This document shows positions 17,714 through 45,558 of a stretch of DNA of 64,000 bases, piece by piece (the first letter of the stretch is position 1; each line of letters begins with the position of its first letter). The notes below the pieces were generated by a model, which worked only from the letters and a program-made list of their open reading frames with translations, had not been told where the DNA came from and searched no databases. The translations under genes and the position numbers were made by a program. This DNA comes from a virus (taxonomy: Duplodnaviria > Caudoviricetes): the IMG/VR virus record IMGVR_UViG_3300025000_000055; one strand, written 5' to 3'.

Positions 17714-17878
17714 AATTATTATATTAAAAATGTGGTGATAATATGAATAAAAAAGAATTAATACAAACTGAACAAATATCAGAGCTTTTTAATGTATAAC
17801 CTTCATCTAAAACCCAAATATTATTATTTCATACAGGGGAACCTTTGAGAATGTATATAATAAAATAAAATTTTATTT

Positions 17879-18508
17879 ATGAGAAGGAGTTGTTTTTTAA
17901 TGAAAGGGGATTTTATAAAAGTAAAAGTTGATGAGTACTTAGATATTGAGTATAAAAATACCGATTTAAATGGTAATGAAATTATACCTGATTGTTTCAA
18001 TGTCTTATCTTCAGACACAGTTATTACTACTATTAATTTCCAGGATATAATTGATACGGGGGAAGTTAGAGCTAATATCAATGAATTAGCTTTATTGAAA
18101 ATAGTTGAAATACGTTTAAAAGAAATTCAAAAAAAATCAATTAATTATAATATTGAAGATAAAATTATTACTATATGTATTGAAACAGCAATAAATATTA
18201 TACATGATGTAAAAAAAGTTACAGAATATCCCCCTAAAAACTCAATGAAACAGCGTTTAATAGAATGCTATGAGGATGCTGTTAGAAATAAAATAAAATA
18301 TATTGGGTATGTTATTACTTTAACTACTAATAATATGGATATAGAGTGTAAGATTTCTACAGTAGAAAAGTTTCAGACTAATATACAATATTTAAATAGT
18401 TTTAATAAGGATTTAGTTAAAATGGGTAATAAACATCTTAAAATAACAACATTTTGTTCCGGAAATTCATTTAGTGAAATAGAAGAAAAAATAAATAAAT
18501 TTAAATAA
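17879..18508 (+). CDS. Hypothetical protein with a degenerate Tad1-like N-terminal domain
   Basis: TTINFQ..NINELALLKIVEIRLKEIQ resembles Tad1 TIKFQ..[19 protein letters not shown] (recalled). The real start is likely ATG at 17900. Confidence 0.5.
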   Translation: MRRSCFLMKGDFIKVKVDEYLDIEYKNTDLNGNEIIPDCFNVLSSDTVITTINFQDIIDTGEVRANINELALLKIVEIRLKEIQKKSINYNIEDKIITICIETAINIIHDVKKVTEYPPKNSMKQRLIECYEDAVRNKIKYIGYVITLTTNNMDIECKISTVEKFQTNIQYLNSFNKDLVKMGNKHLKITTFCSGNSFSEIEEKINKFK

Positions 18509-18510
18509 GG

Positions 18511-18963
18511 ATGAATATATTAATGAATGGTTCTATTAAAAAAGAAACTTTTACTTTAAAATTAGCAAGAGAAATTGGAAAACCTGATAAAAATAATGTA
18601 CTTATTAGTGAAGAAATTTGGATTAATTCTTTAAACGGATATATTAAAGAATTAATAGAAAAAAATAGTTTTTTCATTACTTTAGGTAAAGAAGAACCAT
18701 TTCATGTTGATTTGTTAAAAGCTGTTGCTAGAATAAAAGAAATAAATGATAAATATGCTGTTATTGAATTAATTAAAAATTCTAATAGTATTAAGAATTT
18801 AATTGAAACTATTGGAATTGATAATTTGAGGTTAAATTTTAACACTTATTTTAAATATGAAGAAAAAAGTAATTTAAAAGTTGTAACTGAACTTAAATTA
18901 GGAACTTTTTATATAGATTATATGAATGGTGGTCCAAGCCAAAAAATAAGAGGAGATGTATAA
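18511..18963 (+). CDS. Hypothetical protein
   Basis: 150-aa ORF translationally coupled to both neighbours. Confidence 0.65.
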   Translation: MNILMNGSIKKETFTLKLAREIGKPDKNNVLISEEIWINSLNGYIKELIEKNSFFITLGKEEPFHVDLLKAVARIKEINDKYAVIELIKNSNSIKNLIETIGIDNLRLNFNTYFKYEEKSNLKVVTELKLGTFYIDYMNGGPSQKIRGDV

Positions 18964-19951
18964 TATGAAAAAACCACATCTTTCTGTACAATATAAAAAA
19001 GATTTAGGTTGTGTTTTACCAAATAAATTTGATATTATATCAAAAGTTGGTAATTATGATGATGTAAAAGTTATTAATACTATTAAATTTCAGGAAGGTT
19101 CTGTTGAGGAATTTGGAATTAATGGTGTTACTGAAGAGAGTTTATTATCTGTATTAATGATAAGATTTGAAGAACTTCAAAAAAGTCCTCTTTCTTGTGA
19201 AAAATATCAATTATCATTAGAATTAGTAAATACATTATTACAATTATTAACAAAAACAGATGAAAATTATCTAGTTCAAAATAATATAAGTAAAACAATT
19301 CTAAATCTTTTACTTGAAAAAAGAAAAGAAATTAAAGAAGAAATATTAACTAGAAAAATAACTCCAAAACAGAGACTACTTAATCTTATTGATGATGCTA
19401 TTAAATTAAATAAAAAACTTATTTCTATTTGTTATAGTTATAAGGAAGATAGTTCTTCTATTAAATCTAATAATAATACTAAATATATAGTAAATCATAC
19501 TACTAGAGTTTATGATATGATAGAATTTATATTAACTTCTTTTAATGATGAATTAAAGAATAAAATAAATTTTAACGAAAAAATAATTAGTTTTTGTTAC
19601 AGTGAACCTCAGTATTCAAAACATATTGAAGAATTACTGTTATCTAATCTATATAAAGTTGATAAAATACCTAAAAATTGTTTACTTAGTTGTATGAATG
19701 AAGTATTCAATAATGGATTTAAAAATAAATGTTTTGATTATTTAAAAAGAGATGAAAAAGGTTTGATACATCATATTAGAATTATGGGTGAAAAAGTTTA
19801 TCTAAGAGAATTAGAATATATTACCCTTTGCTATGATGATGAATTGAATAATATCTTTTTTAAAGATATTATGATTTTTGGTTTTTATTCAAATCAATAC
19901 AGTAATTTTAATGACGTTATAGAAATAATGAAAAAAAGTAGATTTTATTAA
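18956..19951 (+). CDS. Hypothetical protein with a Tad1-like N-terminal domain and an unknown C-terminal domain
   Basis: NTIKFQEGSVEEFGINGVTEESLLSVLMIRFEELQKSPLSC matches the recalled Tad1 core pattern. Confidence 0.6.
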   Translation: MYNMKKPHLSVQYKKDLGCVLPNKFDIISKVGNYDDVKVINTIKFQEGSVEEFGINGVTEESLLSVLMIRFEELQKSPLSCEKYQLSLELVNTLLQLLTKTDENYLVQNNISKTILNLLLEKRKEIKEEILTRKITPKQRLLNLIDDAIKLNKKLISICYSYKEDSSSIKSNNNTKYIVNHTTRVYDMIEFILTSFNDELKNKINFNEKIISFCYSEPQYSKHIEELLLSNLYKVDKIPKNCLLSCMNEVFNNGFKNKCFDYLKRDEKGLIHHIRIMGEKVYLRELEYITLCYDDELNNIFFKDIMIFGFYSNQYSNFNDVIEIMKKSRFY

Positions 19952-20032
19952 AATAATTATGTATTAATAAGTCATAGTTTATAGTATGTAAGTTATAATA
20001 TAAACTATGACTTATTTTTTTATAAAGAATTT

Positions 20033-20045
20033 AAATATATATTAT
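20033..20045 (+). promoter_or_regulatory. Early promoter motif AAATATATATTAT
   Basis: Exact copy upstream of the ORF 20100 / DEAH helicase unit. Confidence 0.55.
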
Positions 20046-30601: not shown

Positions 30602-32161
30602 GTGAAGCTCATGAATATAAACATAAATAGAGTTTTATCTAATGTGAAAGTTAATGTTATTAAAAAAGAATTTGATTATTTAAAAGAAAATTACTCGACT
30701 ATTAATTCTATTAATTACTTACAATTTGTACGTTCCCAACCAATTGATATTATATTTGAAAATTCTCAATATGTATTTTCAGAATTAAGAGAAGGATATA
30801 AATTATATAATAGAATTTTAAAATCTTTTGATTTATCATTAGAGCAATTACAAGTTCAACAAAATAAATTAAAAGAATATATTAGTAGGTGTAAAAATAA
30901 TGAATATGATAATAAAAGTCATATTTACTTATTGAATGAATGTGTGAAATTTATAGAATCAGAAATTAAATATAAAAATAGTTTTAAGTATTTAAAAGAA
31001 TCAATGATTTATGATATTCATTTTAATTATCTTCAACCAGTATTAGAAGATAATATTAGTAATATTATGGATGAAATTATATTAAATATAAATCACAATC
31101 CTACTCTTATAAATGAATATCAGGTACTTATTCATCATATAGAAAAAGAATCCGTTTTAGTAATTGGAAAAAATTTTCCTTTAATTTTAGCTAAAAATAC
31201 TGCTCTTATTCTAGCTATGGGTGGAATTATAGCAGGAACACTTCTTATCTTAGTTTTATCAGTACCCCTATTATTAGTGAATTCAATTATAGAAAAAAAA
31301 ATAGATAACACATTTATTGAATCATATAAATATTGTATACGAAAAGAAATATCAAGATTAAAAATAGTTAAAGAAGAAGATGAAAATAGAAAAAAAACTA
31401 TTGATAAGTATATTGAACAATTAGAATTAGCATATAATAAATTAGATGAATCTAAAGATAACAATACAGCCGTTAAAGAAAATTCAATAACAACTATAAC
31501 TGAGGATGAAAATGATTTAACGACAACTATATTAACTCAATTTATCAACACTTTAATATTTGATGAAGAAGAAGATAATGAAACTGAAGATATGCAATTC
31601 ACATTAGAAAATTTTAATATATTAATTAGAAATATAAGAAAATTACAAAATATAAAAGAAATGAATTGTTTACAAGAAGGCACTATAGATAATGTTGGCA
31701 GAAAAGTTGTTCATGCTGTACGATCTACTGCTAATAATATAGGTTCAGGTAGTTCCAGTATTAAAAAATCTGTTAATCATGTTGTAGATGCTTTTAATGA
31801 TACTATTGATAAGTATAAAAAGATGGAAGTAAATGAAAGACGTAATAGAATTATTGAAGGTGGTTCTTCATTTACTTTAATGAAAATAATTAAATATGGT
31901 ATTGCTGTAGGTTTAGTTTGGGCGGTTTCACCTGCTTTGGCTGCTATAGGTTTATTAACATCAGTTGCTCTTAATGTTCATGCTGATATTAAAGAAAGAA
32001 AAAAAATTCTTAATGATTTAGAAGATGAATTAAAAATAGTTGATGCTAAAATAGAAGATTCTAGAAATGATGACCAAAAAGAAAAGAAATACCAATTAAT
32101 GAGAATAAAAAGTAAACTAGAAAAAGATATTGCTAGAATTAAATATAGATTAGATGATTAG
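30602..32161 (+). CDS. Probable internal head protein
   Basis: Late operon before the capsid gene; several L/V-x-E sites and hydrophobic Ala/Gly/Val segments typical of ejected inner-head proteins. Confidence 0.55.
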   Translation: MKLMNININRVLSNVKVNVIKKEFDYLKENYSTINSINYLQFVRSQPIDIIFENSQYVFSELREGYKLYNRILKSFDLSLEQLQVQQNKLKEYISRCKNNEYDNKSHIYLLNECVKFIESEIKYKNSFKYLKESMIYDIHFNYLQPVLEDNISNIMDEIILNINHNPTLINEYQVLIHHIEKESVLVIGKNFPLILAKNTALILAMGGIIAGTLLILVLSVPLLLVNSIIEKKIDNTFIESYKYCIRKEISRLKIVKEEDENRKKTIDKYIEQLELAYNKLDESKDNNTAVKENSITTITEDENDLTTTILTQFINTLIFDEEEDNETEDMQFTLENFNILIRNIRKLQNIKEMNCLQEGTIDNVGRKVVHAVRSTANNIGSGSSSIKKSVNHVVDAFNDTIDKYKKMEVNERRNRIIEGGSSFTLMKIIKYGIAVGLVWAVSPALAAIGLLTSVALNVHADIKERKKILNDLEDELKIVDAKIEDSRNDDQKEKKYQLMRIKSKLEKDIARIKYRLDD

Positions 32162-32888
32162 GAGGTTTATCTATATGGATTTTTTTGATATATTAAAAGA
32201 AGCCAAGAATCCTAAATCTGCAAAACCATCAAATAAAAAGAATATTAAAATTGAGGATGACTCTTTAGATAAAACTACTGATTATTCCAGTGATGTTGAT
32301 AATAATAAAAAAGATACTTCTACAAATGATAATATAAATAAAAATGATGAAACGACAGATTATACACTAACAGATGACGATAGTGAAGACACTGATTATA
32401 CGTCAGAAGATGTACAAAAAGAACCTATTGATACACCTGATGATGACAACCCAGATGATACTTCAGATGACACCACTGATTATACAGATGAAAACACAAA
32501 TTCAGATGAAGATGGTACTGAAGATAACTCTGATTTAACTGATGAAAATTCAGATGTTAATATTACTGATAAAGAAAAAAATAAGAGTCTATTAAAAGAT
32601 TATTTGGACCTTTATTATTTAACAAAAAATACTGTAGTTAAGTTATCAAATTTAGATAAGAGTGATATAATATTAAATAAAGTTTCAACACAAGTTATTT
32701 CCAATTTAAATATAATTCAAAAACAATTATTTAATTTCATCATATATAAGTTTTCAAAAAATAATTATATAAATAATCTATATCAATACAATTATTTTAT
32801 TGAAGCTTTTAGAATTAATATTGAAATGATAAAAAAAATAAGCTTTTTTGTGACCAATAAACAAAACAAATATATAAAAAATCAATGA
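32154..32888 (+). CDS. Acidic low-complexity head protein, possibly scaffold/core
   Basis: Asp/Thr-rich repeats (TTDY). Directly precedes the major capsid gene, and the likely start MDFFDILKE follows GGAGG. Confidence 0.55.
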   Translation: MIRRFIYMDFFDILKEAKNPKSAKPSNKKNIKIEDDSLDKTTDYSSDVDNNKKDTSTNDNINKNDETTDYTLTDDDSEDTDYTSEDVQKEPIDTPDDDNPDDTSDDTTDYTDENTNSDEDGTEDNSDLTDENSDVNITDKEKNKSLLKDYLDLYYLTKNTVVKLSNLDKSDIILNKVSTQVISNLNIIQKQLFNFIIYKFSKNNYINNLYQYNYFIEAFRINIEMIKKISFFVTNKQNKYIKNQ

Positions 32889-34612
32889 GAGGAAGTGCCA
32901 AAGACATGTATGATTACTTAGATGAAAATCAAAACCCGACGAGGGTAATTGGCTCGTTTACTGTCGATAGAAATAGTGATTTCAAAGAGAGTTTTAAATC
33001 TCTTGTAGAAAATTTTAAAGGCCATTATAACATTGACCCAGTTGATAATTTATTACAAATTCTAAAAGTGGATACCTTAAGAGAAGATTATAAAGAACAG
33101 CTGCTTGGTGATGTTGATATGGGGCACATTGATGATCCGTATTATTCAACGCATCCTCAAAAGTTAAGTCAATTGTTTGAAAACTCCTCCTTAGAACTCA
33201 TCAAGGAATCTATGGATATCGGAAGCCTGTCTCCGATTGTTGGTATTTCATTACCGGTTCTTAAAAAGAATTATTTGGAGTGTCATTCTAAAGATATTGT
33301 TATGACAGAAATTCCGACAAAACCAATTATCAAAATTGCTTTTGAAAGAAAATTTTTAAAAGATAAAGCTGGTACTAAATACTATATTCCAGAAATTTTT
33401 TATGATGGTTCATATGCAGCTGTAGAGGCAAAAACACAAGGTCTGCCTATTGTTAATACTTGGTTTCCAGCAGATGAAGGGGTAGTTTTACCTTTCCAAG
33501 ATCTACCTATTATGCGTTTATCTGGTGGTACCATGGAAACAAGAGATAGTTTAGCATATGATTTTTGCATTGAGGCGGTCAAAATGACAGTCGATGGTGC
33601 GGATAAAATTATTTCAGGTTTGAATATTCAAGCGGATTTTGGGTCCAATAATACTTTTTCATATCGTATTAAAACTGAAAATGCCGCCGGTACAGCAGTA
33701 GAAGATATTATTACAGGTCAAGTTGATCCGTATTATGGTACGGTATCTGTTGCTTGTACTAGTGGTAAAATTACAAAGGTTAGATTCGGTGGACATTTAA
33801 GTAATGAAAACAACACTGAAACTGTCGAACTGGATAAAGAAAGAGTCACCAAAGAGTGGAAAATTCCTGATGGGAAAAGAATCAACACTGGATTAACAAT
33901 TGAAAAAATTAAAGATAACAGGGCTTTATTTAATACAAACATTACAGCTGATATCATTACCGACATGAGCACAGTATTAACCCATTTTGAAGATAGTGGT
34001 ATTTTGCAATTCCTGGATACAAGTTTCACCACATGGAAAGATAAAAAGGACCTGCCTTTTGGTTATACTGGCGGTTTTGTTGAAACTTCTAGCTTTAATT
34101 GTCTTCCCACTTCCAGTGTTCATATTCCAATTTCACAATGGATTAACAGTGAATTAAAGTTCTATATAACTCGTCTTATTGACGAACTAAAAACAAAATT
34201 AAAAATTACCGATATGATGTTTGTTATTTATGGTAATCCAAGTAATATCACTTTAATCCAGGATGAGGTTAAATGGGTTATTGATGAAGATACGAAAATT
34301 GGTGGTATTCAATTGGAGTATAAGTTTGGTGTACTTACTGGAAATAAGAGTAGAGTCCATGTTGTAAGTTCATTGAAAGTTCCTAGAGAAAAAGGTTTAC
34401 GTATTGTTGCTTATCCTTTGACTCAAGAAACTATTACATTCAAACATTACAAATACAGTTTGAACATTGAAAACGTTTACAGAAATCCAAATACTCCTTT
34501 AATCCCCAACATTATGGGAACATCCAGATATTTAACCACTGAAGTTTTACCAGTTCAAGGTGGATTGACTTTGAAAAATAATGACTTTGGTATTACTAAA
34601 TACACTTCTTAA
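32885..34612 (+). CDS. Major capsid protein
   Basis: 575 aa; propeptide ending in ELIKE|S; highly expressed codon style; followed by a terminator; located in the head operon. Confidence 0.8.
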   Translation: MRGSAKDMYDYLDENQNPTRVIGSFTVDRNSDFKESFKSLVENFKGHYNIDPVDNLLQILKVDTLREDYKEQLLGDVDMGHIDDPYYSTHPQKLSQLFENSSLELIKESMDIGSLSPIVGISLPVLKKNYLECHSKDIVMTEIPTKPIIKIAFERKFLKDKAGTKYYIPEIFYDGSYAAVEAKTQGLPIVNTWFPADEGVVLPFQDLPIMRLSGGTMETRDSLAYDFCIEAVKMTVDGADKIISGLNIQADFGSNNTFSYRIKTENAAGTAVEDIITGQVDPYYGTVSVACTSGKITKVRFGGHLSNENNTETVELDKERVTKEWKIPDGKRINTGLTIEKIKDNRALFNTNITADIITDMSTVLTHFEDSGILQFLDTSFTTWKDKKDLPFGYTGGFVETSSFNCLPTSSVHIPISQWINSELKFYITRLIDELKTKLKITDMMFVIYGNPSNITLIQDEVKWVIDEDTKIGGIQLEYKFGVLTGNKSRVHVVSSLKVPREKGLRIVAYPLTQETITFKHYKYSLNIENVYRNPNTPLIPNIMGTSRYLTTEVLPVQGGLTLKNNDFGITKYTS

Positions 34613-34627
34613 TAAAATAAAAATACA

Positions 34628-34660
34628 TAAAGATTATAGGTTAATAACCTATAATCTTTA
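34628..34660 (+). terminator. Intrinsic terminator after the capsid gene
   Basis: TAAAGATTATAGGTT-AAT-AACCTATAATCTTTA. Confidence 0.7.
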
Positions 34661-34675
34661 TTATTTATTTCAAAG

Positions 34676-34687
34676 AACACTTTAGTA
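34676..34687 (+). promoter_or_regulatory. AR9-like late promoter AACA-N6-TA
   Basis: AACA-CTTTAG-TA upstream of 34717. Confidence 0.55.
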
Positions 34688-34716
34688 ATATAAACAATTG
34701 AGAGGTGAATATTTAA

Positions 34717-35955
34717 ATGGCGGATACTATATTAACAATAATTGAAAACTCTTTTAAAGAAATAAAAGAAAAAAGAAATATTTTGTCTAATCTAAATATA
34801 ATTGAACGTAATATCAATAGACTATTTAATTTAAATTTTAAAGTTAGTATTGTAGAAAATGATACAAATGAATTTTTTGGTATGAGTATTTATCCATCAT
34901 CAAATCTTATCGATGATATTATTATTGCAACTTTTAAAAGAGATGTTAGAACACAACTCGATGGTATTATTAAAATGTGGTCATTTGAAAAAAATTGGTT
35001 TTTAGAAATAGATAGTATATTATTATACGATAAAAATTTAAATGCTAATCCGTCTGAAATTACAGCTGTATTATTACATGAGGTTGGTCATGTTATTCAT
35101 TCTAATGAAGCCCCTCAAAGATTTGTTAGATTAATAAAATACTCTTTATTTAATATTAATTTTCATATTAGAGAATTATGTAAAAATGATACAATAAGAA
35201 AATTATTTTCATTAGCATTAATTGAATCATGTACAACTAAAAACTTTAATATGATACAAGCTAATACAGAAGTTATTGCTGATAGACATGTTATAAAATT
35301 TGGTTATGCTGATTCTTTAAATAATTTTATTGATAAATTAATTGCATCTCAAGGTAATAATTTAGTTGAAAGAACAGAAAAAGAAAAGGATATAGATGTT
35401 AAAATTATTATTAAGTGGACAATAGATAATATAAGTGAATTAGAATTTAGAAAGAGTAAATTAAAAATAGCGATTCAATCTCAAATGTTAGATACTCCGA
35501 GTATGTATATTAAATCACATCTTAAGAAAATAGTTAGTATTTTCTTTGGAGAAGAAGGTGCTGATAGTTATAAACAGATTCTATCCGAACAATATTTTGT
35601 TGAAATGTGTAATTTAAGTAAAACAAAGATTATTAAAGAATTTTTTGATAGATTTGGTAAAATTAAAAAGATTCAACAAAGTGATATTGATATTCTCTTT
35701 ATTGAATTTGATAAGATGGAAAATAATAATGACAAAATTTATCTCATTGAATTAATTCATGATAAATTAGATAATATTAATGCGGCTTTAGAATGTATTG
35801 TTAACAATGAAAAAGATAGAGTTCAACAAAGTGAATCAACTCTTAAAGGTTTTAAAGCCCAATTAGAAAAGTTAAGATTACAAACATTAAGTATCCATCT
35901 TAAAGAAAAACAATATGGGTTATTTATTAAATATCCAAAAGGGTATGAAGGATAA
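34717..35955 (+). CDS. Probable virion protein with HEXXH motif
   Basis: AVLLHEVGH; late promoter. Confidence 0.6.
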   Translation: MADTILTIIENSFKEIKEKRNILSNLNIIERNINRLFNLNFKVSIVENDTNEFFGMSIYPSSNLIDDIIIATFKRDVRTQLDGIIKMWSFEKNWFLEIDSILLYDKNLNANPSEITAVLLHEVGHVIHSNEAPQRFVRLIKYSLFNINFHIRELCKNDTIRKLFSLALIESCTTKNFNMIQANTEVIADRHVIKFGYADSLNNFIDKLIASQGNNLVERTEKEKDIDVKIIIKWTIDNISELEFRKSKLKIAIQSQMLDTPSMYIKSHLKKIVSIFFGEEGADSYKQILSEQYFVEMCNLSKTKIIKEFFDRFGKIKKIQQSDIDILFIEFDKMENNNDKIYLIELIHDKLDNINAALECIVNNEKDRVQQSESTLKGFKAQLEKLRLQTLSIHLKEKQYGLFIKYPKGYEG

Positions 35956-36004
35956 AAACAAAATATTAAAATAAATTATATAAGTTTTTTATTTTTACAA
36001 GGAG

Positions 36005-36517
36005 GTGTACAATAGTTTCATGAATATAATTAGTCAAATTCAACATAGAAGAGATACAACAGCTAATTGGGTATTACATAACCCTATATTAGCTGAAGGT
36101 GAATTAGGTATCGAGTTTTATGATAATAATATTATAAAAATTAAAATAGGTAATGGTATTAATACATGGAATGAATTAACTTATTTGAGTAATCCTGAAA
36201 CAGTTATAAGTAATTCAAATGCTAGTGGTGTAGTAGACTTGGATGTGTCTATTGCCAATATTTTTGAAATAATTTTATCGGGCACAACAACATTTACATT
36301 TAGTAATCCTGCTGTTTCAGGTAAAAATACTTCACTAACAATATTTATTCAACAAGGAGTAGTTGCACAAACGATAACATGGCCAGCTTCAGTTGTTTGG
36401 TTAGGTGATATAGCACCTGATTTAAGTACAATTAATCAAACTTATATCGTACAATTTAATACTATTAATGGCGGTATTCGTTGGTATGGAACTTTAACAG
36501 GGAAGGTAACAACATAA
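36005..36517 (+). CDS. Tail-fibre-associated protein (Mtd N-terminal / hyaluronidase-like domain)
   Basis: IQHRRDTTANW..NPILAEGELGIE..KIKIGNG..WNELTY followed by a short beta-rich domain. Confidence 0.7.
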   Translation: MYNSFMNIISQIQHRRDTTANWVLHNPILAEGELGIEFYDNNIIKIKIGNGINTWNELTYLSNPETVISNSNASGVVDLDVSIANIFEIILSGTTTFTFSNPAVSGKNTSLTIFIQQGVVAQTITWPASVVWLGDIAPDLSTINQTYIVQFNTINGGIRWYGTLTGKVTT

Positions 36518-36888
36518 TGTTTGGATTTAAATTGTTCAAATAATGAGTAAATCACATTAATTTATTTTTAGAAGTTAGTGATATAACTGATTTTATCTGT
36601 AGAATTTTATTATCCTTTGGTGGATATTTCTACTATAACTAAGATTGAGTTAAAACTTTATTATGTTTCTGCTCAATCTACGGTTTCTAATATATAATGT
36701 CAAACATTAATACTCACTAGAGATGAGTAGATATAAAATTAGGTAATGTAACTCGGAATATTTATAAGACAAAATTCATCTGGAATATTCCGAGTAAAAA
36801 TATATAAGTGAATGAATTGGTTAAATCTAATTAATTAAAAGGGGTACCTATTTACTTACATTTTTTTGTGGTGAGTAATCAATGAAAC

Positions 36889-36900
36889 AACAATTAAATA
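36889..36900 (+). promoter_or_regulatory. AR9-like late promoter AACA-N6-TA
   Basis: AACA-ATTAAA-TA, the same 12-mer as before the tail sheath. Confidence 0.6.
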
Positions 36901-36924
36901 AATATAAAAGGAAGGTGATACTAT

Positions 36925-37422
36925 TTGTTAATGTTTGGGTTACCAAAGAAGGTTTTTCATTTGGATACTAATATGAATATGGCTATAAAACAAATTCCTT
37001 ATTCAATATTACCATCAGGTATTATTATACCTCAGAAACATAGTAGTGATGGAACACTAGAAACTAATAGTAAACTAACTGGTAGTGATGTTGGTGAAGA
37101 ATTCACATTTCAAGACGCTGTAATCGTCACAGGTGAAGGTGAACACCTGACTCTTTCTGGACAGGATAAAGTAATTGTAAGTATTCCCACTGGAACGTCA
37201 ACAAGTAGAAATATAGTATTTAAAGCTACTTCATTAGGAGTTACTGCTTATATGCTTGGGGCAAAAGTAGAATCCTCAGGAAGTATCACGCTTGCCGTTA
37301 GCACTACCAATCAAAATGAAGTTTGGGAAGTTACTGGATTATCCGGTTACGATGACTTTTTCTGTGAAGTAACCGCAGTAGCTGGTGGTAATGTCACCGT
37401 TAAAGGAAGGTTGGTGGCGTAA
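36925..37422 (+). CDS. Hypothetical protein, probably tail-associated and horizontally acquired
   Basis: Beta-rich, visibly higher G+C than the flanks, coupled to the SGNH gene. Confidence 0.65.
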   Translation: MLMFGLPKKVFHLDTNMNMAIKQIPYSILPSGIIIPQKHSSDGTLETNSKLTGSDVGEEFTFQDAVIVTGEGEHLTLSGQDKVIVSIPTGTSTSRNIVFKATSLGVTAYMLGAKVESSGSITLAVSTTNQNEVWEVTGLSGYDDFFCEVTAVAGGNVTVKGRLVA

Positions 37423-38646
37423 ATGGATAAAAAATTATTAGCACTTGCACAGAAAAATTCTTTTGACATATTAAATAAAACTAATAAATCTGATGTTTTT
37501 GAATATGTAACATCTATTTCCAATAAATCATCTACCAGTAGTTTAGATGTTAACTACAGATTTACATTTGACGGTAATGGTTTGGGATTATCTGGAATTG
37601 ACCAGATGAGGCCTGTTTTTGAATTGTTAACTATCGACCCAAATGCGGTAAGTTATAAGATATTAATGTATCTTTCGAATAGTCCCACAGCAATAACAGG
37701 TGGTGTAAATTATTCTATATCAAATATCAATATGCGATATGGTATTTGGCAGAAATATGATGATTTGCGAGATTATTATGTTTCCACTTATCGTTATATA
37801 CATCTGCTCGTAAGAGTTAATACCACTGTATCACAATTAACAAAATATTTTTTGAAAAATATAAAGTTTTATATAGGTTCTTCGAAAGCACCTCTTGTTT
37901 CTCAATCTCTTTATAACCAATACATATCATCTACAGAGAGTACGAATTATCAAGTATTTGAATCGTTAAGGAATAGCCCGTGGATAGGTAAAAAAATTGT
38001 GACTTTCGGAGATTCAATAACTTGGTATGATGGGAACCTTTTTGGTGCTGGACACATTGAAGCAGGTCAGACAGCGGTTGGGTATCAGAGTTATATGAGG
38101 GAAGAATTGAAATGTACTGTGATAAACGAAGGTATGAGTGCAAGAAATATCACCGAGATGTGGGACGAAAAGATTAATGCTTATGATTTTACAAATATTG
38201 ATGCTGTTACAATTACAAGTGGTGCTAATGATCATAGGGAAAATATCTCTGTAGGGGCAATAGATGTAATGGGAGCGACATTTAATACAACAACTTTTTA
38301 CGGTGCTTTGCAAGCGACTATAGAGAGAATTATATCACAAAGTCCCTTAACAAAAATTTACCTTATTACACCAATTCGTGGATATTTTAATGAAGAAGGA
38401 ACCGGCAATGTCCCTAATCCAAATGCAATGCCTGAAATTAGTAGAGATTTTCCAGATGCAATTAAGGCTGTTGGGAAATTATATGGCATACCAGTATGTG
38501 ACTGGTATGATAGTTGTGGAGTTAATGACTTAAATATTCTAAATTATTTGGGTGATACTTCTACCCCTCCGTATTATTTACATCCTAAAAATGTTCTATA
38601 TAAACGTATGGCTAATATTCTTGTTCCGTTTTTAAAAAATAATTAG
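37423..38646 (+). CDS. SGNH/GDSL-family hydrolase (esterase)
   Basis: FGDSIT (block I), GMSA (II), GANDH (III) and YLHP (V). Confidence 0.88.
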   Translation: MDKKLLALAQKNSFDILNKTNKSDVFEYVTSISNKSSTSSLDVNYRFTFDGNGLGLSGIDQMRPVFELLTIDPNAVSYKILMYLSNSPTAITGGVNYSISNINMRYGIWQKYDDLRDYYVSTYRYIHLLVRVNTTVSQLTKYFLKNIKFYIGSSKAPLVSQSLYNQYISSTESTNYQVFESLRNSPWIGKKIVTFGDSITWYDGNLFGAGHIEAGQTAVGYQSYMREELKCTVINEGMSARNITEMWDEKINAYDFTNIDAVTITSGANDHRENISVGAIDVMGATFNTTTFYGALQATIERIISQSPLTKIYLITPIRGYFNEEGTGNVPNPNAMPEISRDFPDAIKAVGKLYGIPVCDWYDSCGVNDLNILNYLGDTSTPPYYLHPKNVLYKRMANILVPFLKNN

Positions 38647-38741
38647 AGATTATCTAACTAACGAAGGTGCAACAATATATATTCGTGGTGGGTGGTATAA
38701 TGGTGAAGAAACATTTGAAGGTACGGGACAGAAATTATCAT

Positions 38742-38761
38742 ACTAACGAAAATGCGTTAGT
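38742..38761. repeat. Inverted repeat resembling a tyrosine-recombinase site
   Basis: ACTAACG-AAAATG-CGTTAGT, 7-bp arms and a 6-bp spacer, upstream of the recombinase. Confidence 0.5.
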
Positions 38762-38841
38762 TGATTAAAAAATATATAAAATCAACATTTTCCTATTGCA
38801 TTAACCATAATTTTATGTTATGATTAATAAAAATATAGGAG

Positions 38842-39695
38842 GTGTTGATTTTGTTATTATCTCAGACATGGAAACTTTATGAATCAGATAAAAAACTCCT
38901 AGGTTATTCAATTCATACTTTAAAAGCATATAATATACAAATTAATCTATTAATTAAACATTTTGGTGATATAGATATTAGTCTTATTGAATATATTAAT
39001 TTAAAAGAATATTTAATTACATTAACACATCTTAAACCAGCTAGTGTTGGACATAGAATAAGATTTATTCACTCATTATTTCGTTATTTACATGAAGAGG
39101 GTTTTATTGAAAAGAATATTAGTTCAAAATTAAAAGAACTAAAACAAGGTATAAGAATACCTAAAGCTTTTAATGATGAAGAAATTGAGTTATATTACAT
39201 GATAGCTGTAATACTTTATTAGAAAAAGCTTTAACTGAATTTTTCTTTAGTACTGGATGCCGTATAGGAGAAGTTTTTCAGTTAAATAAATCTAATATAA
39301 ATTGGGATACACGTTCTGCTTTAGTTATTGGAAAAGGTAATAAACAAAGGGAAGTTTATTTCACAGTTAAATGTAAGATATGGTTAGAAAAATATATAAA
39401 AAGTCGTAATGATAGTCATGAAGCATTATTTGTCACTGTTAGAAATCCAATTAGGCGTATGTCAATTGCTAGAATAAGGGAAATAATTAAATTGATTGGT
39501 ACTAATTCTGAAGTTGAAACTAATATTTATCCTCATCGCTGGAGACACAGTGCTGCAACCGTTTTAATTAACAACGGTGCACCAATTGAAGTTATCATGA
39601 GTAATTTAGGCCATGCTAGACCTAGTACAACCATGATATATGCTCAACTTAGTGGTGAGAAACGCAGACAAGAATACAATAAATATTTTAGATAA
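38842..39695 (+). pseudogene. XerC/D-like tyrosine recombinase with a 2-nt frameshift
   Basis: SAM-like N-terminal domain in 38842-39222. Removing TA at 39193-39194 gives one frame with TGCRIGE, GKGNKQR, HRWRH, LGH and MIY intact. Confidence 0.85.
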
Positions 39696-39697
39696 CT

Positions 39698-39735
39698 ATT
39701 AAAACTTACCTTTATAATAGAAGGTAAGTTTTAAT
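39698..39735 (+). terminator. Hairpin / terminator closing the recombinase block
   Basis: ATTAAAACTTACCTT...AAGGTAAGTTTTAAT. Confidence 0.65.
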
Positions 39736-39742
39736 ATATTTT

Positions 39743-39754
39743 AACATTTCAATA
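39743..39754 (+). promoter_or_regulatory. AR9-like late promoter AACA-N6-TA
   Basis: AACA-TTTCAA-TA upstream of the terminase. Confidence 0.55.
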
Positions 39755-39785
39755 AATCATTAATATTTATAACAGGGGGTTTTAT

Positions 39786-42700
39786 ATGAAAAAACCATAT
39801 ATTTATGATTTGGAAACTAAGAACTTATCTTTCTTACAAACAGCTAAAGATCTACATGTACTTGGTATTAAAAATAATGTATTTTTTTTAAAATTGTATG
39901 ATAAATCTTTAAAGAAAGTTGATCCTCATTCACCATTTTTAACAGATGACCAAATTATAAAAATTATTAATGAATGTATGATTAATCCCTGGTATTTTTT
40001 AAGAGAGGTTGCAAGAATTGCAGATCAAGGCGGGAGGGGTCTTCCATATCAACTTCATAGGGCTAATCTAGCTTCCACATATTGTTATTTAAATGGTATA
40101 GATCATTATGTAGTAATACCAAGACAAAAAGGTAAAACTCAAAGTGAATTAGCTATAATAAATTGGTCATTTCTATTAGGTACAACTAATTCAGAATTTA
40201 TGTTTTTAAGTCTAAGTCAAGCTGGTGCTAATGAAAATCTTGATAGATTGAAAAAACAAAAAGATTTATTACCACATTATTTACAATTTAAAATGATTTT
40301 TTCAGATGATGGTAAAATTATTAAAGAAACTGATAATGTTAAAACTTTAGCTAATGCTATTAATGGTAATAAAATAATAACTAAACCATCTGCTAAATCA
40401 ATAGAAGCCGCCGAGAAGATCGGTAGGGGTTATTTTTAGCTCCCTCATACAGTAATGTATGTTGAATAACTTCTTTAATTGTCGGGGAAGCTCTTAGAGC
40501 CTAAGACTACTAAATTATATTAGTAATAATATAATGGCTTGGACTAATCAACCAAGGTATAGTAATAAGGTTTTAGGATTGAGTAATCCGCAGCTAAGAT
40601 TTTATTAAATGGGTAACAATTTTATAAAAAAATGTATAAAGGTGTTGATAATAAAATGTTTGTCGTAATACCAGTTGAAAGGAAAAAATTTAAACCATTG
40701 ACATTCCCAGAAGTTCAAGAAGGTAGATATATAATCAGTAATTATGGTGATATTATTGATTTAAAAACAGGATTAGAAAAAAAATTAAATATTAATAAGA
40801 AAAAATAATTATATTAGTGCAAAAATTAAAATGGATAATAATAAAACTAAATCAATAGCTGTTCATAGATTAGTAGCTTATGAATTTTGTGATAATTATA
40901 ATGTTAATGATAAAAATAGTCTTAAAAGTTTTAATTATTATGAAAATCTTGAATGGGTTACTTATTCTGAGAATAATAAACATCGTTTTGAGCATGGGAA
41001 TGGAAGTAGTGCTAAACCACCAATACTTAGGGGTGAGAATAATCCTCACAACGTTTACTCTACAGAATTTATAAAGGAAATTTGTTTTTTATTAACTAAA
41101 AGATATACTGTTAAAGAAATACTAGATTATTTTGAATGTATAGAAAATAGGAAAAAAATAATTTCTTTAATTCATGATATACGATGTAGAAGAACATGGG
41201 GACATATTTCTAGAAATTATGATTTTGAAACCCATTTAACAAAATAAAGTTCAACGACTATCCCATTGGTACTGAAATGGTACAATAGGAGTAGGGCTCA
41301 AGTGAGTGGGTGAAATTCCCTTAAATCGAAATAGGAAACTCCATTATACTGATTATATAATGGATGAAGATATAGTCTAGTATCCTAATGAAAGTTAGGG
41401 AAGTTCATAAGAGAACTGCATAGATTAACGACCTATGTGAATATATCGAGTACACAACCTGTGCATTTATACGACGAAGTTGAGTTTACATCCTATATTA
41501 AAACTATCATTGAGGCAGCGGCAATGGCGTTTAAAACAGCTTCTAAAAATGCAAAAAGAAATAATGCCCCTTATTGCCGTTCGTTCCTGAGCACACCTGG
41601 AGATCTCGATACTAAAGCTGGACAAGAATGTATGGATATAATTAGTAAGACATATAGATGGACTGAAAAATTTTATGATATGAATATAGATGATGTTAAA
41701 GAAATTATAATAAATAATTCAGAAAATAGAATAGTTTATATTGAATACGATTATAAACAATTAGGAGAAGGTGAAGAATGGTTTAATGAATCTTGTGCAG
41801 TAATAGGTAATAATCCATTAAAAATTAAGAGAGAATTATTATTACAAAGAATGAGAGGTTCTTCTAATTCTCCATTTGAACCAGAAGATTTAGAACTTAT
41901 TAGAGAAAAACAAGGTAAAATAATTGAAGAAATATTTATTAATAAATTATTTAGATTGGACATATATAAACCTTTAGTAAGAGATAGAATTTATTTTATA
42001 TGTGTTGACGTTTCAAAAGGTTATGGTCAAGATAATTCAGCTGTAGTAATATTAGATCCATATGAACTCAAGCCCGTTGCAGAATTTGAATCACCGTATA
42101 TAGGTGTAACTCAATTAAAGAATTTTTTATATACACTTGTTAAGAAATATTTACCTAGAAGTATTTTATGTATTGAAAGAAATGAGAATGGTGAATCTAT
42201 ATTAGATGGGTTAAGATATACTGATATAATGCATAATTTATATTTTGATAAAGATAAAGACCCTATTGCTTCACAATTAGATGATAGAATGGATAGTCAA
42301 GGATTTTTAAAACAAGAAGCTTTGAAACGTAAATTATATGGTGTATGGACTGGAACTAAATCAAGACAAGTAATGTTTAGTTTATTGGAAACACATATCG
42401 CAGAATATAAAGATAATTTTATTTGTGCAAATATTATTAATGATTTATTTAAATTAGTCATGAAAAAGAATGGTAAGATTGAAGCTGAAAGTGGATTCCA
42501 TGATGATTCTATTATGGCATATTTAATAGGATTATATGTTTATTATCATGGTAATAATCTACATTATTTTGGTTTTGTTAAAGGTGAATTACCTGATGAA
42601 AAAACCCGAAATAAAGGATTATCGACATATGATGAAATAATGGAAGAAATGCCTGATGAAGAAAAACGATTTTTTGATGAGAGTTTTGGTTCTAAGACTA

Positions 42701-42867
42701 TAGATGATTATCAAAATCATGTAATAGAAGAACTAAAAAGAGTTCAAAGAGAACAAACTAATATGACTAATGCAAGTGGGATGTTTAAACCAACAACCTA
42801 TGCTGAACAATATGAAGATAATGAAATTGAAATACCATTAGACTTCTTTGATGAATTAAATAGTTAG
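39786..42867 (+). CDS. Terminase large subunit, spliced from two exons, 687 aa
   Basis: Exons 39786-40430 and 41449-42867. Walker A PRQKGKT; the junction KIGRG|STQPVHLYDE restores Walker B; nuclease motifs CVDVSKG and HDDSIMA. Confidence 0.92.
40431..41448 (+). ncRNA. Group I intron of the terminase, degenerate endonuclease in P6
   Basis: P1 GGGGU|...GCUCC; Q, R and S elements; terminal G at 41448. Confidence 0.88.
40633..41247 (+). pseudogene. Decayed HNH homing endonuclease
   Basis: The NUMOD4-like part (RYIISNYGDIID) stops in an A run near 40808. The HNH part continues in another frame, with VNDKNSLKSFN replacing VNHKDGxKxNN. Confidence 0.75.
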
Positions 42868-42872
42868 TTATA

Positions 42873-42910
42873 AAATAATATAATGTATATTAATATACAT
42901 TATATTATTT
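42873..42910. terminator. Palindromic hairpin after the terminase
   Basis: AAATAATATAATGTATATT/AATATACATTATATTATTT. Confidence 0.55.
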
Positions 42911-42925
42911 TTTTACTATTATACT

Positions 42926-42937
42926 AACAATGTTTTA
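42926..42937 (+). promoter_or_regulatory. AR9-like late promoter AACA-N6-TA
   Basis: AACA-ATGTTT-TA upstream of 42958. Confidence 0.55.
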
Positions 42938-42957
42938 ATTATGAATAAAAAAGGAGA

Positions 42958-43740
42958 GTGAAAAAGTTGCTATTTGATGATGAAGAATATATGAGAACTA
43001 GTGATTTAGATATAGAATTACTATTAGCAGAATTACCGTTTAATTTAACAAGAGAAAATATAATTGAACAAATAAATGACCCAATTTCAATTCAAGTTAA
43101 TTATATAACTACGTTATTGGATAAATGTGATATTGTTAAAAATCAATTTGTTGATAACTCTGAAGTTATTAAAGAAATTGATACAAATTTGCGTTCAATA
43201 TTCGAACTTATTTTAAGAGAAATGAATGAAAAATTTAGATTGGGTGTAAGTGTAAATGAAAGTGATGATGATATTATTAAATTGGGTGAAGCCTTATACA
43301 CATATTTAATTTTAAGATATAAAAAAAATGTTAGTCGATTTATATATAGATACATTTTAAAAAATAAAAAAGAGTTTATTGAAAAATTTGATACAACTAA
43401 GAAAAAAGATATTACATCATTGGCATTAAAGAAACAATTTAAAAATAAAGATGATATAATTCTAATCACATCATTACCTAAAATTATAAAACATATTATG
43501 GGTCTTGATATAGAACCAATAGATTTTTTAGATATTATTTCAAAAGGTGAACACTATGAGGCTTCTATTATTAAGGAAGCTATTTTATCAGGACAGATTA
43601 TAGGTAATTTTATACCAAGATATTTTTATTTAATGATTGACGAATATGAACATGTTATGGATGAGATTCAAACAGATATAAAATTAAAGTTAATAAATAA
43701 AATAAAAAGTAATGAAGGGAAGAGGATGAAAAATGAATAA
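42958..43740 (+). CDS. Hypothetical late protein
   Basis: 260-aa ORF with an AAGGAG RBS. Confidence 0.7.
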   Translation: MKKLLFDDEEYMRTSDLDIELLLAELPFNLTRENIIEQINDPISIQVNYITTLLDKCDIVKNQFVDNSEVIKEIDTNLRSIFELILREMNEKFRLGVSVNESDDDIIKLGEALYTYLILRYKKNVSRFIYRYILKNKKEFIEKFDTTKKKDITSLALKKQFKNKDDIILITSLPKIIKHIMGLDIEPIDFLDIISKGEHYEASIIKEAILSGQIIGNFIPRYFYLMIDEYEHVMDEIQTDIKLKLINKIKSNEGKRMKNE

Positions 43741-44704
43741 TCCAGTACAAAAAATTAATCAATTAGAATGTGGTGTTGATGATATTATGTTTACTAAGAA
43801 TAATGAATTTGGTAATGACGGTAAAATTTTAAAAATGTTAAGAATAAAATCTAAATTAGAAGAAGTTACTAATATGAAAAATAAAATTAATGAGCAGCAA
43901 AATAAATTTATTGATAATGAAGATGTGATAAATATTTTAGATGAGCGTACTAAAAATATAACTGTCTTTGGAATAAAAAGATTAACAAATAAACAAATAG
44001 AAGAAATTTATACTATTAATAATGAAAAAGTTGAATTGCTTATTGAAACTGATAGTGAAGAAAGAAAGATTAGTTTCATGAGGGACTTTTTAATATTCAA
44101 AAAAGAAAGTTCTGTCGCATTAAAACAAATAGATGATTCTATGGAAAAATTAGAAAAAGAGTTAAAAGAAAATGAAAAGCAACTTAATAAGATTATTGAA
44201 GAATGCGGTGATATTAACTCACTTATTAAAAATCGTCTTATTAATAATATTAATAATTCAGCTAATGAAAATATTAAAAAACGTAACACTGAAATTCTTA
44301 AAAATTTTAATGATGCATTGACATTAAATATAATTTTTGAACACTATAGAAACCAAAATATTTTAAATACTTTGCATGATTATAAAATGAGATCCGAAGC
44401 TATATATAAAAATTATGTTAAAACTTGTAAACAACTAGGTATTAAATCAGATATAACTGTTTTTGATGGTTTAGAAAAATTCTTACCTGAAAAATATCAT
44501 ACTTATCCCAATTTATTCTTATTTTCAATTATTAAGTATTTTGCTTATAAGAAGAACAATTGTGATAAACATATTGAAGGTATTTTCTTATCTCAATTCC
44601 TAGTAAATGTACAAAATCTTTTCTGTGACAAATTTAAAGATAAAGGAGAAAAACAAATATTTATTGAAGCTATTATGAAAGTACTAGATTTATTTTATTC
44701 ATAA
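43733..44704 (+). CDS. Hypothetical late protein (coiled-coil)
   Basis: 323-aa ORF overlapping the upstream stop. Confidence 0.7.
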   Translation: MNNPVQKINQLECGVDDIMFTKNNEFGNDGKILKMLRIKSKLEEVTNMKNKINEQQNKFIDNEDVINILDERTKNITVFGIKRLTNKQIEEIYTINNEKVELLIETDSEERKISFMRDFLIFKKESSVALKQIDDSMEKLEKELKENEKQLNKIIEECGDINSLIKNRLINNINNSANENIKKRNTEILKNFNDALTLNIIFEHYRNQNILNTLHDYKMRSEAIYKNYVKTCKQLGIKSDITVFDGLEKFLPEKYHTYPNLFLFSIIKYFAYKKNNCDKHIEGIFLSQFLVNVQNLFCDKFKDKGEKQIFIEAIMKVLDLFYS

Positions 44705-44705
44705 A

Positions 44706-44717
44706 AACATTAGGATA
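44706..44717 (+). promoter_or_regulatory. AR9-like late promoter AACA-N6-TA
   Basis: AACA-TTAGGA-TA upstream of 44783. Confidence 0.5.
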
Positions 44718-44782
44718 AGGTTGTGAATTTTAAATTCACTTCCTTATCCTAATTTTATTTTTTAAAGGTAGGTGTAAATAAA

Positions 44783-45517
44783 TTGATTGAAAATTTTTTA
44801 AGTGATAATGGTACAGACATAATATTTAATGGGGAACAATTAGAAGCTTACATACCAGAATTTTATTTTAAAAATAATAAATTAGGTGAGCAATTAGGTT
44901 CATCTTTAAAAGTTTTTGGTTTATTCAACATTAGAATGATTAATAAAGGTAAACCGTCTAAACTTGAGACTTTTATTCTACCATCAATGATTATGGTGTT
45001 CCCTTCAACAATTGAATATAAGAAATTAAAATTAATAGATGAACAGGAAGAAGAAGAATGTTATATGGTATTAAATTTCTTTAAAGGTGGAAAGATTACA
45101 CCTAATAGTGTTTCACAAGATGCAACTAATGTGGAATTATTTTTAGATCTTATATGTGGTGGGAAATTACCAGAAACTATTCCTTATAACCAAATAATTC
45201 AAATATGGCAAAAGAATTTAAATCTGAATAATATTAATTTGAACGTAACATCAACTGTATTAGAAGTTATTGTAAGCGAAATTTATCGTAATAAAAAAAA
45301 ACCAGAAGAAACATTTGCTAAATTATGGGGAAGAAATCCTAATATATCGCAATATGAATATAAACGAGCGAATATTAGAGAAATTTGTGCTAGAAATTCT
45401 ACTTTTGCTGCATTAACATATGAGGATATGGATGCTATGATAACATCTTCTCTTAACATTAGGAACTATAATAGGGAAGAAACTGAATCTCCTATAGAAA
45501 AAATAATAAAGATGTAA
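44783..45517 (+). CDS. Probable virion RNA polymerase beta' C-terminal fragment subunit
   Basis: VLEVIVSEIYR and NIREICARNSTFAALTYEDMDAMITSSL resemble beta' HIEVIVRQM and [26 protein letters not shown]. Confidence 0.6.
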   Translation: MIENFLSDNGTDIIFNGEQLEAYIPEFYFKNNKLGEQLGSSLKVFGLFNIRMINKGKPSKLETFILPSMIMVFPSTIEYKKLKLIDEQEEEECYMVLNFFKGGKITPNSVSQDATNVELFLDLICGGKLPETIPYNQIIQIWQKNLNLNNINLNVTSTVLEVIVSEIYRNKKKPEETFAKLWGRNPNISQYEYKRANIREICARNSTFAALTYEDMDAMITSSLNIRNYNREETESPIEKIIKM

Positions 45518-45528
45518 TAATCAATGAG

Positions 45529-45540
45529 AACAATTAAATA
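45529..45540 (+). promoter_or_regulatory. AR9-like late promoter AACA-N6-TA
   Basis: AACA-ATTAAA-TA upstream of the sheath gene. Confidence 0.6.
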
Positions 45541-45558
45541 AAAAAATTCACAAGGAGG

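Follow-up and report, generated by a model that had tools for sequence, protein, structure and literature searches.

Tad1, Tad2, and Acb2 are regarded as sponges that are small and stand alone, and anti-defense genes are now routinely annotated by homology to them. Here we describe a phage gene whose product matches Tad1 clearly over its amino-terminal third and otherwise departs from that description. The gene lies at 18965..19951 (+) of IMG/VR record IMGVR_UViG_3300025000_000055, a stretch of 64,000 nucleotides (hereafter the window), and joins a Tad1-family domain to two copies of a different, small α/β domain; gene and product are called the fusion gene and the fusion protein. The Tad1-family domain keeps the fold and, by prediction, the dimer, whereas residue comparison indicates that its nucleotide-signal pocket has been dismantled. 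Our tentative reading is that a sponge fold has become a scaffold for other binding domains.

The pocket in question has been described in detail for CbTad1, in which 11 residues contact glycocyclic ADP-ribose (gcADPR): F82, R109, and N92 at the adenine; R57, R109, R113, and G120 at the diphosphate; F87 at the ribose; and H29, G55, R78, and N122 at the ribose-ribose linkage (Leavitt et al., 10.1101/2022.05.03.490397). Carboxyl-terminal residues 116-122 form a lid over the ligand (10.1101/2022.05.03.490397). Binding of gcADPR and of 2',3'-cyclic GMP-AMP (2',3'-cGAMP) is lost in the double mutants F82A/N92A and R109A/R113A, and residues R90 and T97 have two roles, binding cyclic trinucleotides and keeping the hexamer together (Li et al., 10.1101/2023.11.15.567273). 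Specificity shifts within sponge families are documented (PMC12393519). One Tad1 belongs to a larger protein: phiKZ gp184 is a minor capsid protein on the inner vertex as well as that phage's Tad1, its amino terminus wedged in the capsid and its carboxyl terminus freed by the head protease (PMC11297242; 10.1101/2025.11.23.690004).

The Tad1-Family Domain

The fusion gene and its parts are as follows, with residues numbered throughout in the 331-amino acid (aa) reading.

18965..19951 (+), fusion-protein gene: 328 aa from the ATG at 18965; the mechanical open reading frame (ORF) from 18956 gives 331 aa
18950..18955 (+), Shine-Dalgarno sequence GAGGAG, read from the sequence: abuts the ATG at 18956 and lies 9 nucleotides (nt) before the ATG at 18965
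18977..19282 (+), Tad1-family domain, aa 8-109: β-sheet and two long helices; keeps FQxG, GxNG, R70, Q75, and C81; lacks the pocket residues and the carboxyl-terminal lid
19283..19354 (+), helical linker, aa 110-133: predicted local distance difference test (pLDDT) about 70-79; nearly identical in sister phages
19355..19660 (+), repeat 1 of the ~95-aa α/β unit, aa 134-235: motifs PK..LL, FNDEL, and I..FCYS
19661..19948 (+), repeat 2 of the ~95-aa α/β unit, aa 236-331: weak phrog_3915 match at aa 286-314

The true start is most likely the ATG at 18965, because GAGGAG touches the ATG at 18956 but stands 9 nt from the later one. A public gene call (P0002) also begins at 18965.

An original prediction, made from the letters of the DNA, placed a Tad1-like fold at 18956-19951, and both profile and structural matches to Tad1 are found within aa 1-110. 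The PHROGs profile phrog_2428 matches aa 21-100 (expectation value [E] 8.3e-14). A phmmer search of all Protein Data Bank (PDB) chains recovers CmTad1 (8kbb, E 1e-7), CbTad1 (7uav, E 1.3e-3; 8kbe-h, ~1e-3), and phiKZ gp184 (8y6v_I, E 7e-4). Among 1.84 billion representatives the same program adds another 109 proteins at E<=1e-3, every match falling within aa 7-114 of the fusion protein. These homologs are mostly 110-140 aa long; many have amino-terminal extensions of 50-170 aa, and several of the phage matches carry a structural-protein annotation. Against a family hidden Markov model (HMM) made from the 109 homologs, with the query's own cluster left out, the ORF scores E 1.8e-23; this HMM finds no second convincing Tad1 copy in the window. 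Neither Pfam nor NCBIfam matches the fusion protein, whole or in halves. (The Pfam hairpin model PF24729 misses it, and matches canonical homologs below threshold only.) The peptide quoted in the prediction is present at aa 42-81, and the Tad1 sequence given there agrees with the CbTad1 chain in the HMMER output.

Predicted structure gives the same picture. An AlphaFold model from a 108-row alignment is confident over aa 1-100 (pLDDT 76-96), with an amino-terminal antiparallel β-sheet followed by two long helices, as in Tad1. Significant Foldseek matches of the model are to Tad1 only: each of the best 20 in the PDB is a Tad1 chain (19 at E<=1e-3; probability 1.0; template-modeling [TM] score by target 0.51-0.61), and the first match to another protein comes at E 0.4. 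The top eight VIA-align entries likewise are all Tad1 (Z 6.3-6.8 over 107-108 residues, root-mean-square deviation 4.2-5.0; helical background ~5). Residues that mark the fold are all family-like: F45, Q46, G48, E52, G54, N56, G57, E61, L63, R70, Q75, and C81. By sequence profile and predicted structure, the amino-terminal domain is a genuine Tad1-family relative.

A head-to-tail homodimer of this part is also predicted. Co-folding of two copies of aa 1-150 scores 0.77, against 0.00 for the best of three controls; among proteins of solved structure, 20 of 30 pairs and 1 of 23 single chains attain that mark. At least 66% of contacts recur between runs, partner pLDDT is 67 or higher, and the predicted interface uses the same elements as that of Tad1, namely the two long helices and the sheet. 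The score may, however, reflect memory of solved Tad1 dimers.

The Ligand Pocket

Pocket residues were mapped through the printed HMMER alignment together with a 112-sequence MAFFT alignment. The HMMER chain index plus one equals the published CbTad1 numbering, and all six named residues fall correctly. The correspondence is given here with the CbTad1 residue first.

F82: fusion protein L74
F87: fusion protein L79
N92: fusion protein Y84
R109: fusion protein T101
R113: fusion protein Y105
R90 (cyclic-trinucleotide site): fusion protein E82
T97 (cyclic-trinucleotide site): fusion protein E89
H29 (family His column): probably fusion protein N23
R57: no counterpart in the fusion protein
Lid G120/N122, family motif R-G-V-E-G-T: fusion protein Q-N-N-I-S-K, continuing as a helix into the linker
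G55: fusion protein G48, kept
R78: fusion protein R70, kept

Nine of the 11 gcADPR contacts are thus changed and two (G48 and R70) kept, and none of the four pocket residues validated by mutation survives (F82L, N92Y, R109T, R113Y). Where the family reads C-x-E-N ... R-T-x-x-R-x-x-R-G-V-E-G-T, the fusion protein reads C-E-K-Y ... T-D-E-N-Y-L-V-Q-N-N-I-S-K. The validated positions are 87-98% conserved in the 109 homologs, being occupied by F (87%), N (96%), R (98%), and R (94%). All four residues are present in 92 of the 109 homologs, three in 15, and two in the remaining 2; the fusion cluster has none. The R90 and T97 positions vary within the Tad1 family, so their change is weaker evidence.

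The original prediction held that the distal ligand-binding segment had been replaced, and the change proves even larger than claimed, extending to 9 of the 11 contacts and to the whole lid. By residue comparison, the nucleotide-signal pocket of the Tad1 domain is dismantled. It is doubtful that the fusion protein binds any signal.

The Carboxyl-Terminal Repeats

The remainder of the protein had been described as one unknown domain of about 230 aa. It is indeed unlike Tad1; it is not, however, a single domain, the carboxyl-terminal 220 residues comprising the helical linker and two tandem repeats of ~95 aa. Each repeat opens with a PK-led helix, followed by a hairpin; a second helix, ending F-N-D-E-L, leads to a strand I-x-x-F-C/Y-S and a final helix. 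Modeled from nine sequences, the unit has the order α-β-β-α-β-α (pLDDT 71.6, predicted TM score 0.61).

Structural matches to the unit model include Bacillus phage CP-51 A0A068EMW0 in BFVD (E 3.8e-4, TM 0.59), AFDB clusters at E 1.3e-3 to 1.3e-2, and an 88-aa Atlas cluster at TM 0.73. These are standalone proteins of ~85-97 aa, of unknown function, from phages and prophages of the Bacillota. The profile phrog_3915 matches the fusion protein at profile positions 48-76 of 86 only (E 6e-4 to 8e-3); the link leans on the alignment with an upstream paralog (below) and on predicted structures.

Other searches return little. The unit model has no clear match in the PDB (best Foldseek E 0.17; best Z in the wide VIA-align search 4.9, to unrelated folds). 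In a collection of 5.8 billion proteins, the full-length sequence, the paralog, and a nine-sequence repeat profile match, for the carboxyl-terminal part, its own small cluster alone; the same is true in the 1.84 billion representatives and in a tblastn search of 50,697 phage records. Neither ESM Atlas features nor a low-confidence Atlas model yields a usable lead for aa 140-331.

A new effector domain, also suggested at the outset, gains no support: what follows the linker is a small phage-specific domain present twice, in which no catalytic-looking conserved residues are seen and for which no enzyme or effector family match is found. Alignment of the nine repeat sequences leaves five invariant columns: K, L, I, F, and I.

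Two specific candidates were considered and set aside. Proteins of the GIY-YIG superfamily carry catalytic Tyr, Tyr, Arg, Glu, and Asn residues on a β-β-α-β-α core. Such a nuclease was raised by weak, scattered structural rows (E 0.08-0.3, TM 0.3-0.47) and by a Y-I-G-Y string, but the nine repeats have no invariant Tyr, Arg, or Glu. A Tad2-like unit was raised by one Atlas row (TM 0.51), whose cluster proteins, at 242 aa, are far longer than the Tad2 domain, so that the match may fall outside it; no Tad2 structure is among the PDB matches listed for the unit model.

Divergence among Sister Phages

Groundwater metagenomes are the source of the identical or related contigs, which range from 51 to 250 kb. 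The reading frame of the fusion gene is intact, at 328-345 aa, in three lineages, and the protein is known as two alleles only. Comparison with the sister phage L001 divides the gene into two unlike parts. Over codons 1-147, identity is 95% in DNA and 93% in protein, with only 10 amino-acid changes; over codons 148-328 it falls to 58% and 35%, respectively. Flanking DNA is 80-89% identical between the two phages, and neighboring proteins 60-95%. The fusion gene is a mosaic in which the head is unusually conserved and the tail unusually diverged. By analogy, this is the pattern that would be expected of a fixed anchor attached to a swappable or fast-evolving specificity part.

Another relative (L005:6001-7125, IMGVR_UViG_3300025010_000040) has an exact in-frame tandem duplication of 30 residues in the Tad1-like β-sheet, making it 374 aa long instead of 344. 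This duplication may be real or an assembly artefact.

Neighboring Genes and Expression

The fusion gene is the last in a three-gene unit, packed head to tail (17900-19951), with these further features.

17849..17861 (+), candidate promoter of the three-gene unit: GAATGTATATAAT, a weak 10/13 match to the AR9 early consensus AAATATATATTAT
17900..18508 (+), upstream paralog: 202 aa from the ATG at 17900, ribosome-binding site GAAGGAG at 17883-17889; degenerate Tad1-like amino terminus, helices, one α/β unit
18511..18963 (+), middle gene: 150 aa, packed tightly between the two Tad1-like genes; no family assigned
19966..20023 (+), intrinsic terminator: AT-rich hairpin of 22 pairs (-22 kcal/mol, z -6.4), then a run of seven U

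The paralog is colinear with aa 8-214 of the fusion protein (BLASTP E 9e-5) and matches phrog_3915 over nearly the whole profile (positions 4-85 of 86, E 1.4e-5). Aligned by hhalign over the unit, the fusion and paralog alignments give E 0.0012 at a probability of 19% only, because both alignments are shallow. In the Tad1-like part of the paralog, the GxNG loop is gone and the family-profile score falls to E 0.027. A frameshift in one sister lineage (L006:4891-5477) divides the paralog into a head of 37 aa and a body of 158 aa, the latter beginning within the former Tad1-like domain; in another lineage, the gene is missing. Because the Tad1-like part has decayed, and has been frameshifted off in one lineage while the linker-plus-unit part is kept, the former seems dispensable in the paralog and the latter retained. 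The paralog also has a sub-threshold match to Pfam DUF7235 (E 0.0012, aa 55-169 on profile positions 88-192 of 307), which could mark a larger family with a similar linker-plus-unit layout.

The middle gene is kept in all three sister lineages at 62-74% identity. By language-model features it lies nearest to prohead-protease clusters (Peptidase S77/S80, YonD_N, DUF2213; score 0.92), which is a lead only; BLASTP finds no match between it and the window's own prohead protease.

By marks in the window, whose G+C content is ~25%, the source is an uncultivated AR9-like jumbo phage. Directly 5' of the locus, a multisubunit RNA polymerase gene is split and carries an HNH endonuclease in its intron (phrog_3015, E 4e-40; phrog_59); directly 3' is a DEAH/HA2 helicase gene; and an AR9-type late motif (below) is a third mark. 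The fusion gene sits between an RNA polymerase subunit and helicases, away from head genes. (An ORF of 18 codons, MNKKELIQTEQISELFNV, at window 17744-17800 [+], separates the RNA polymerase gene from the three-gene unit.)

Promoter motifs point to the time of expression. We take AAATATATATTAT to be the AR9 early-promoter consensus and ATATATTAT to be its core. The core occurs at window 13097, 20037, 23997, 24917, 27815, and 28516 (+), the first five directly 5' of same-strand genes, and at 1678, 1804, 2917, 5804, 6144, 11626, 57791, and 62677 (-). The full 13-mer stands at 20033-20045, ahead of the unit formed by a small gene and the DEAH helicase gene. An AR9-type late motif, AACA-N6-TA, is found 20-60 nt 5' of many genes of the structural block, window 30602-47409 (+), and of several minus-strand genes; it precedes no gene between 16.5 and 28 kb. 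A sigma-70 promoter scan does no better than shuffles (30 found, 28.5 expected), and its loop-size rule excludes the 22-pair terminator hairpin. Early or middle expression of the three-gene unit is likely, because the late motif precedes no gene in 16.5-28 kb and exact early cores precede neighboring units (at 20037, 23997, 24917, and 27815).

Possible Functions

Our leading reading, held at a little under an even chance, is that the fusion protein is an accessory protein, made from other than a late promoter, in which the Tad1-derived part forms a dimer scaffold; variable binding domains displayed on it would engage a macromolecular target in phage-host conflict. The Tad1-descended domain would have kept its fold and, by prediction, its head-to-tail dimer while the signal pocket was dismantled, and would now serve only as a stable dimer (or higher oligomer) scaffold. 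The conserved helical linker would join this scaffold to the two tandem copies of the small phage-specific α/β domain, so that four or more carboxyl-terminal units per particle would bind a variable macromolecular target. Action would be by direct binding, not by sequestering gcADPR or cyclic oligonucleotides. The original prediction had named an altered-specificity sponge and an oligomerization module as possibilities; the dimer score, with the same proviso about model memory, speaks for oligomerization, and loss of the pocket weakens the case for altered specificity.

Several points weigh against the scaffold. Two loops that line the Tad1 pocket, FQxG and GxNG, are strictly kept, as expected if some ligand is still bound. 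The unit model is of moderate quality only (pLDDT 71.6), and the full-length model is poor past aa 150. To call the tail fast-evolving is to rely on two carboxyl-terminal alleles, and high conservation of the amino-terminal DNA could reflect recent recombination rather than selection. Finally, the 10/13 promoter match is weak.

It is possible, if unlikely, that the protein is still a sponge, its pocket rebuilt for a different immune signal that is less phosphate-rich or uncharged, with the repeats adding a second activity or target. Such a signal would be bound by the tyrosines and leucines now standing in place of the arginines and the asparagine. Sponge families shift specificity widely, and of the homologs tested roughly one in four inhibited no system out of seven (PMC12393519). 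Here the two pocket loops and R70 are strictly family-like, the amino-terminal domain is the best-conserved segment of the neighborhood, the pocket-forming dimer is predicted to persist, and the replacements Y84 and Y105 are aromatic and could stack on a base. Such rebuilding would nevertheless have to accommodate change of 9 of 11 contacts at once, including loss of all three phosphate-binding arginines; a glutamate (E51) for the family lysine after the FQxG loop; and a lid replaced by a helix that continues into the linker. No other detectable homolog falls below two of the four validated pocket residues. Moreover, the paralog is without the GxNG loop, and its amino-terminal part is frameshifted off in a sister lineage, suggesting that the function of the paralog family lies elsewhere.

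A related idea, less probable again, is that the Tad1-derived dimer has been rebuilt as a receptor for a new host signal or metabolite that is not phosphate-rich, coupled to the carboxyl-terminal repeats. The protein would then be a sponge turned sensor, or a two-function anti-defense protein, of a kind not yet described.

We consider it improbable that the fusion protein is packaged in the virion in the manner of phiKZ gp184, with the order of parts reversed, the sponge being cut free by the head protease and injected with the DNA. The idea draws on the match of gp184 to the Tad1-like domain (8y6v_I, E 7e-4), on the double identity of gp184 as minor capsid protein and Tad1 (PMC11297242; 10.1101/2025.11.23.690004), and on the structural annotations and amino-terminal extensions seen among homologs. 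In the fusion protein, however, the architecture is the opposite, with the Tad1-like domain first and the extension after it. The late promoter motif present in the structural block is absent from the fusion gene, which sits between an RNA polymerase subunit and helicases, away from the head genes. A sponge without a pocket would, besides, serve no purpose in a virion.

Least probable of all is that the gene is what remains of a former sponge, in decay and now functionless. In favor are the lost pocket, a paralog that is degenerate and in one lineage broken, and the 30-aa duplication in one relative; against it, the frame is intact in three lineages, the amino-terminal 147 aa are 93% identical with 10 changes only, a good ribosome site stands at the start and a terminator at the end, and the structural core residues of the family are all kept.

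Whichever reading prevails, a clear Tad1 match by profile, fold, and predicted dimer is possible without the binding pocket. Homology alone would mis-annotate the fusion protein as an anti-Thoeris sponge, because here the match comes without the pocket; caution therefore suggests checking the pocket before calling Tad1 homologs sponges. If the scaffold reading is true, a viral sponge fold has been re-used as an oligomerization module for other, fast-evolving domains, and the fusion protein gives first access to the widespread ~90-aa phage proteins, a family to which no role is assigned. If instead the pocket has been altered to new ends, the protein could lead to an immune signal not yet described, much as Tad1 led to gcADPR.

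Comparison with Known Systems

The Tad1 sponges (SBSphiJ7 Tad1; CbTad1, 7UAV/7UAW/8KBE-H; CmTad1, 8KBB-D) are phage-encoded and, by sequence and predicted fold, homologous to the amino terminus of the fusion protein. Common to both are a four-stranded sheet with two long helices; the FQxG and GxNG loops; and E61, R70, Q75, and C81 (fusion protein numbering). A head-to-tail dimer is predicted for the fusion protein. The fusion domain differs in lacking F82, F87, N92, R109, R113, and the RGVEGT lid, and in having glutamate at both cyclic-trinucleotide positions. Tad1 sponges stand alone at 110-140 aa, whereas the Tad1-like domain here is the amino-terminal part of a 328-aa protein.

A Tad1-family domain with none of the four validated residues and 2 of the 11 gcADPR contacts, placed ahead of a different, repeated domain, has no other case in the collections searched or the literature cited. 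Multi-part Tad1 proteins as such are already known. In phiKZ gp184 (PDB 8Y6V chain I), as here, a Tad1-family domain of a jumbo phage is joined to an unrelated second part; that domain, however, is carboxyl-terminal and keeps C-E-E-N in the aligned stretch, the other part is capsid-anchored, and the gene belongs to the virion set. Tandem Tad1-Tad1 homologs (P0009, P0021, and P0025) resemble the fusion protein in being multi-domain and in having an amino-terminal Tad1 copy more degenerate than the other copy. Their second domain is another Tad1, and P0021 and P0025 at least keep a fairly complete carboxyl-terminal pocket motif. The partner in the fusion protein, by contrast, has a different fold, and no intact Tad1 copy is present in the protein or in the window.

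The repeats have their own relatives in phrog_3915 and in structurally similar ~85-97-aa proteins, such as CP-51 A0A068EMW0, which share with the fusion unit the predicted α-β-β-α-β-α order. Those proteins are standalone single domains, whereas the fusion unit is duplicated in tandem behind a Tad1-like domain.

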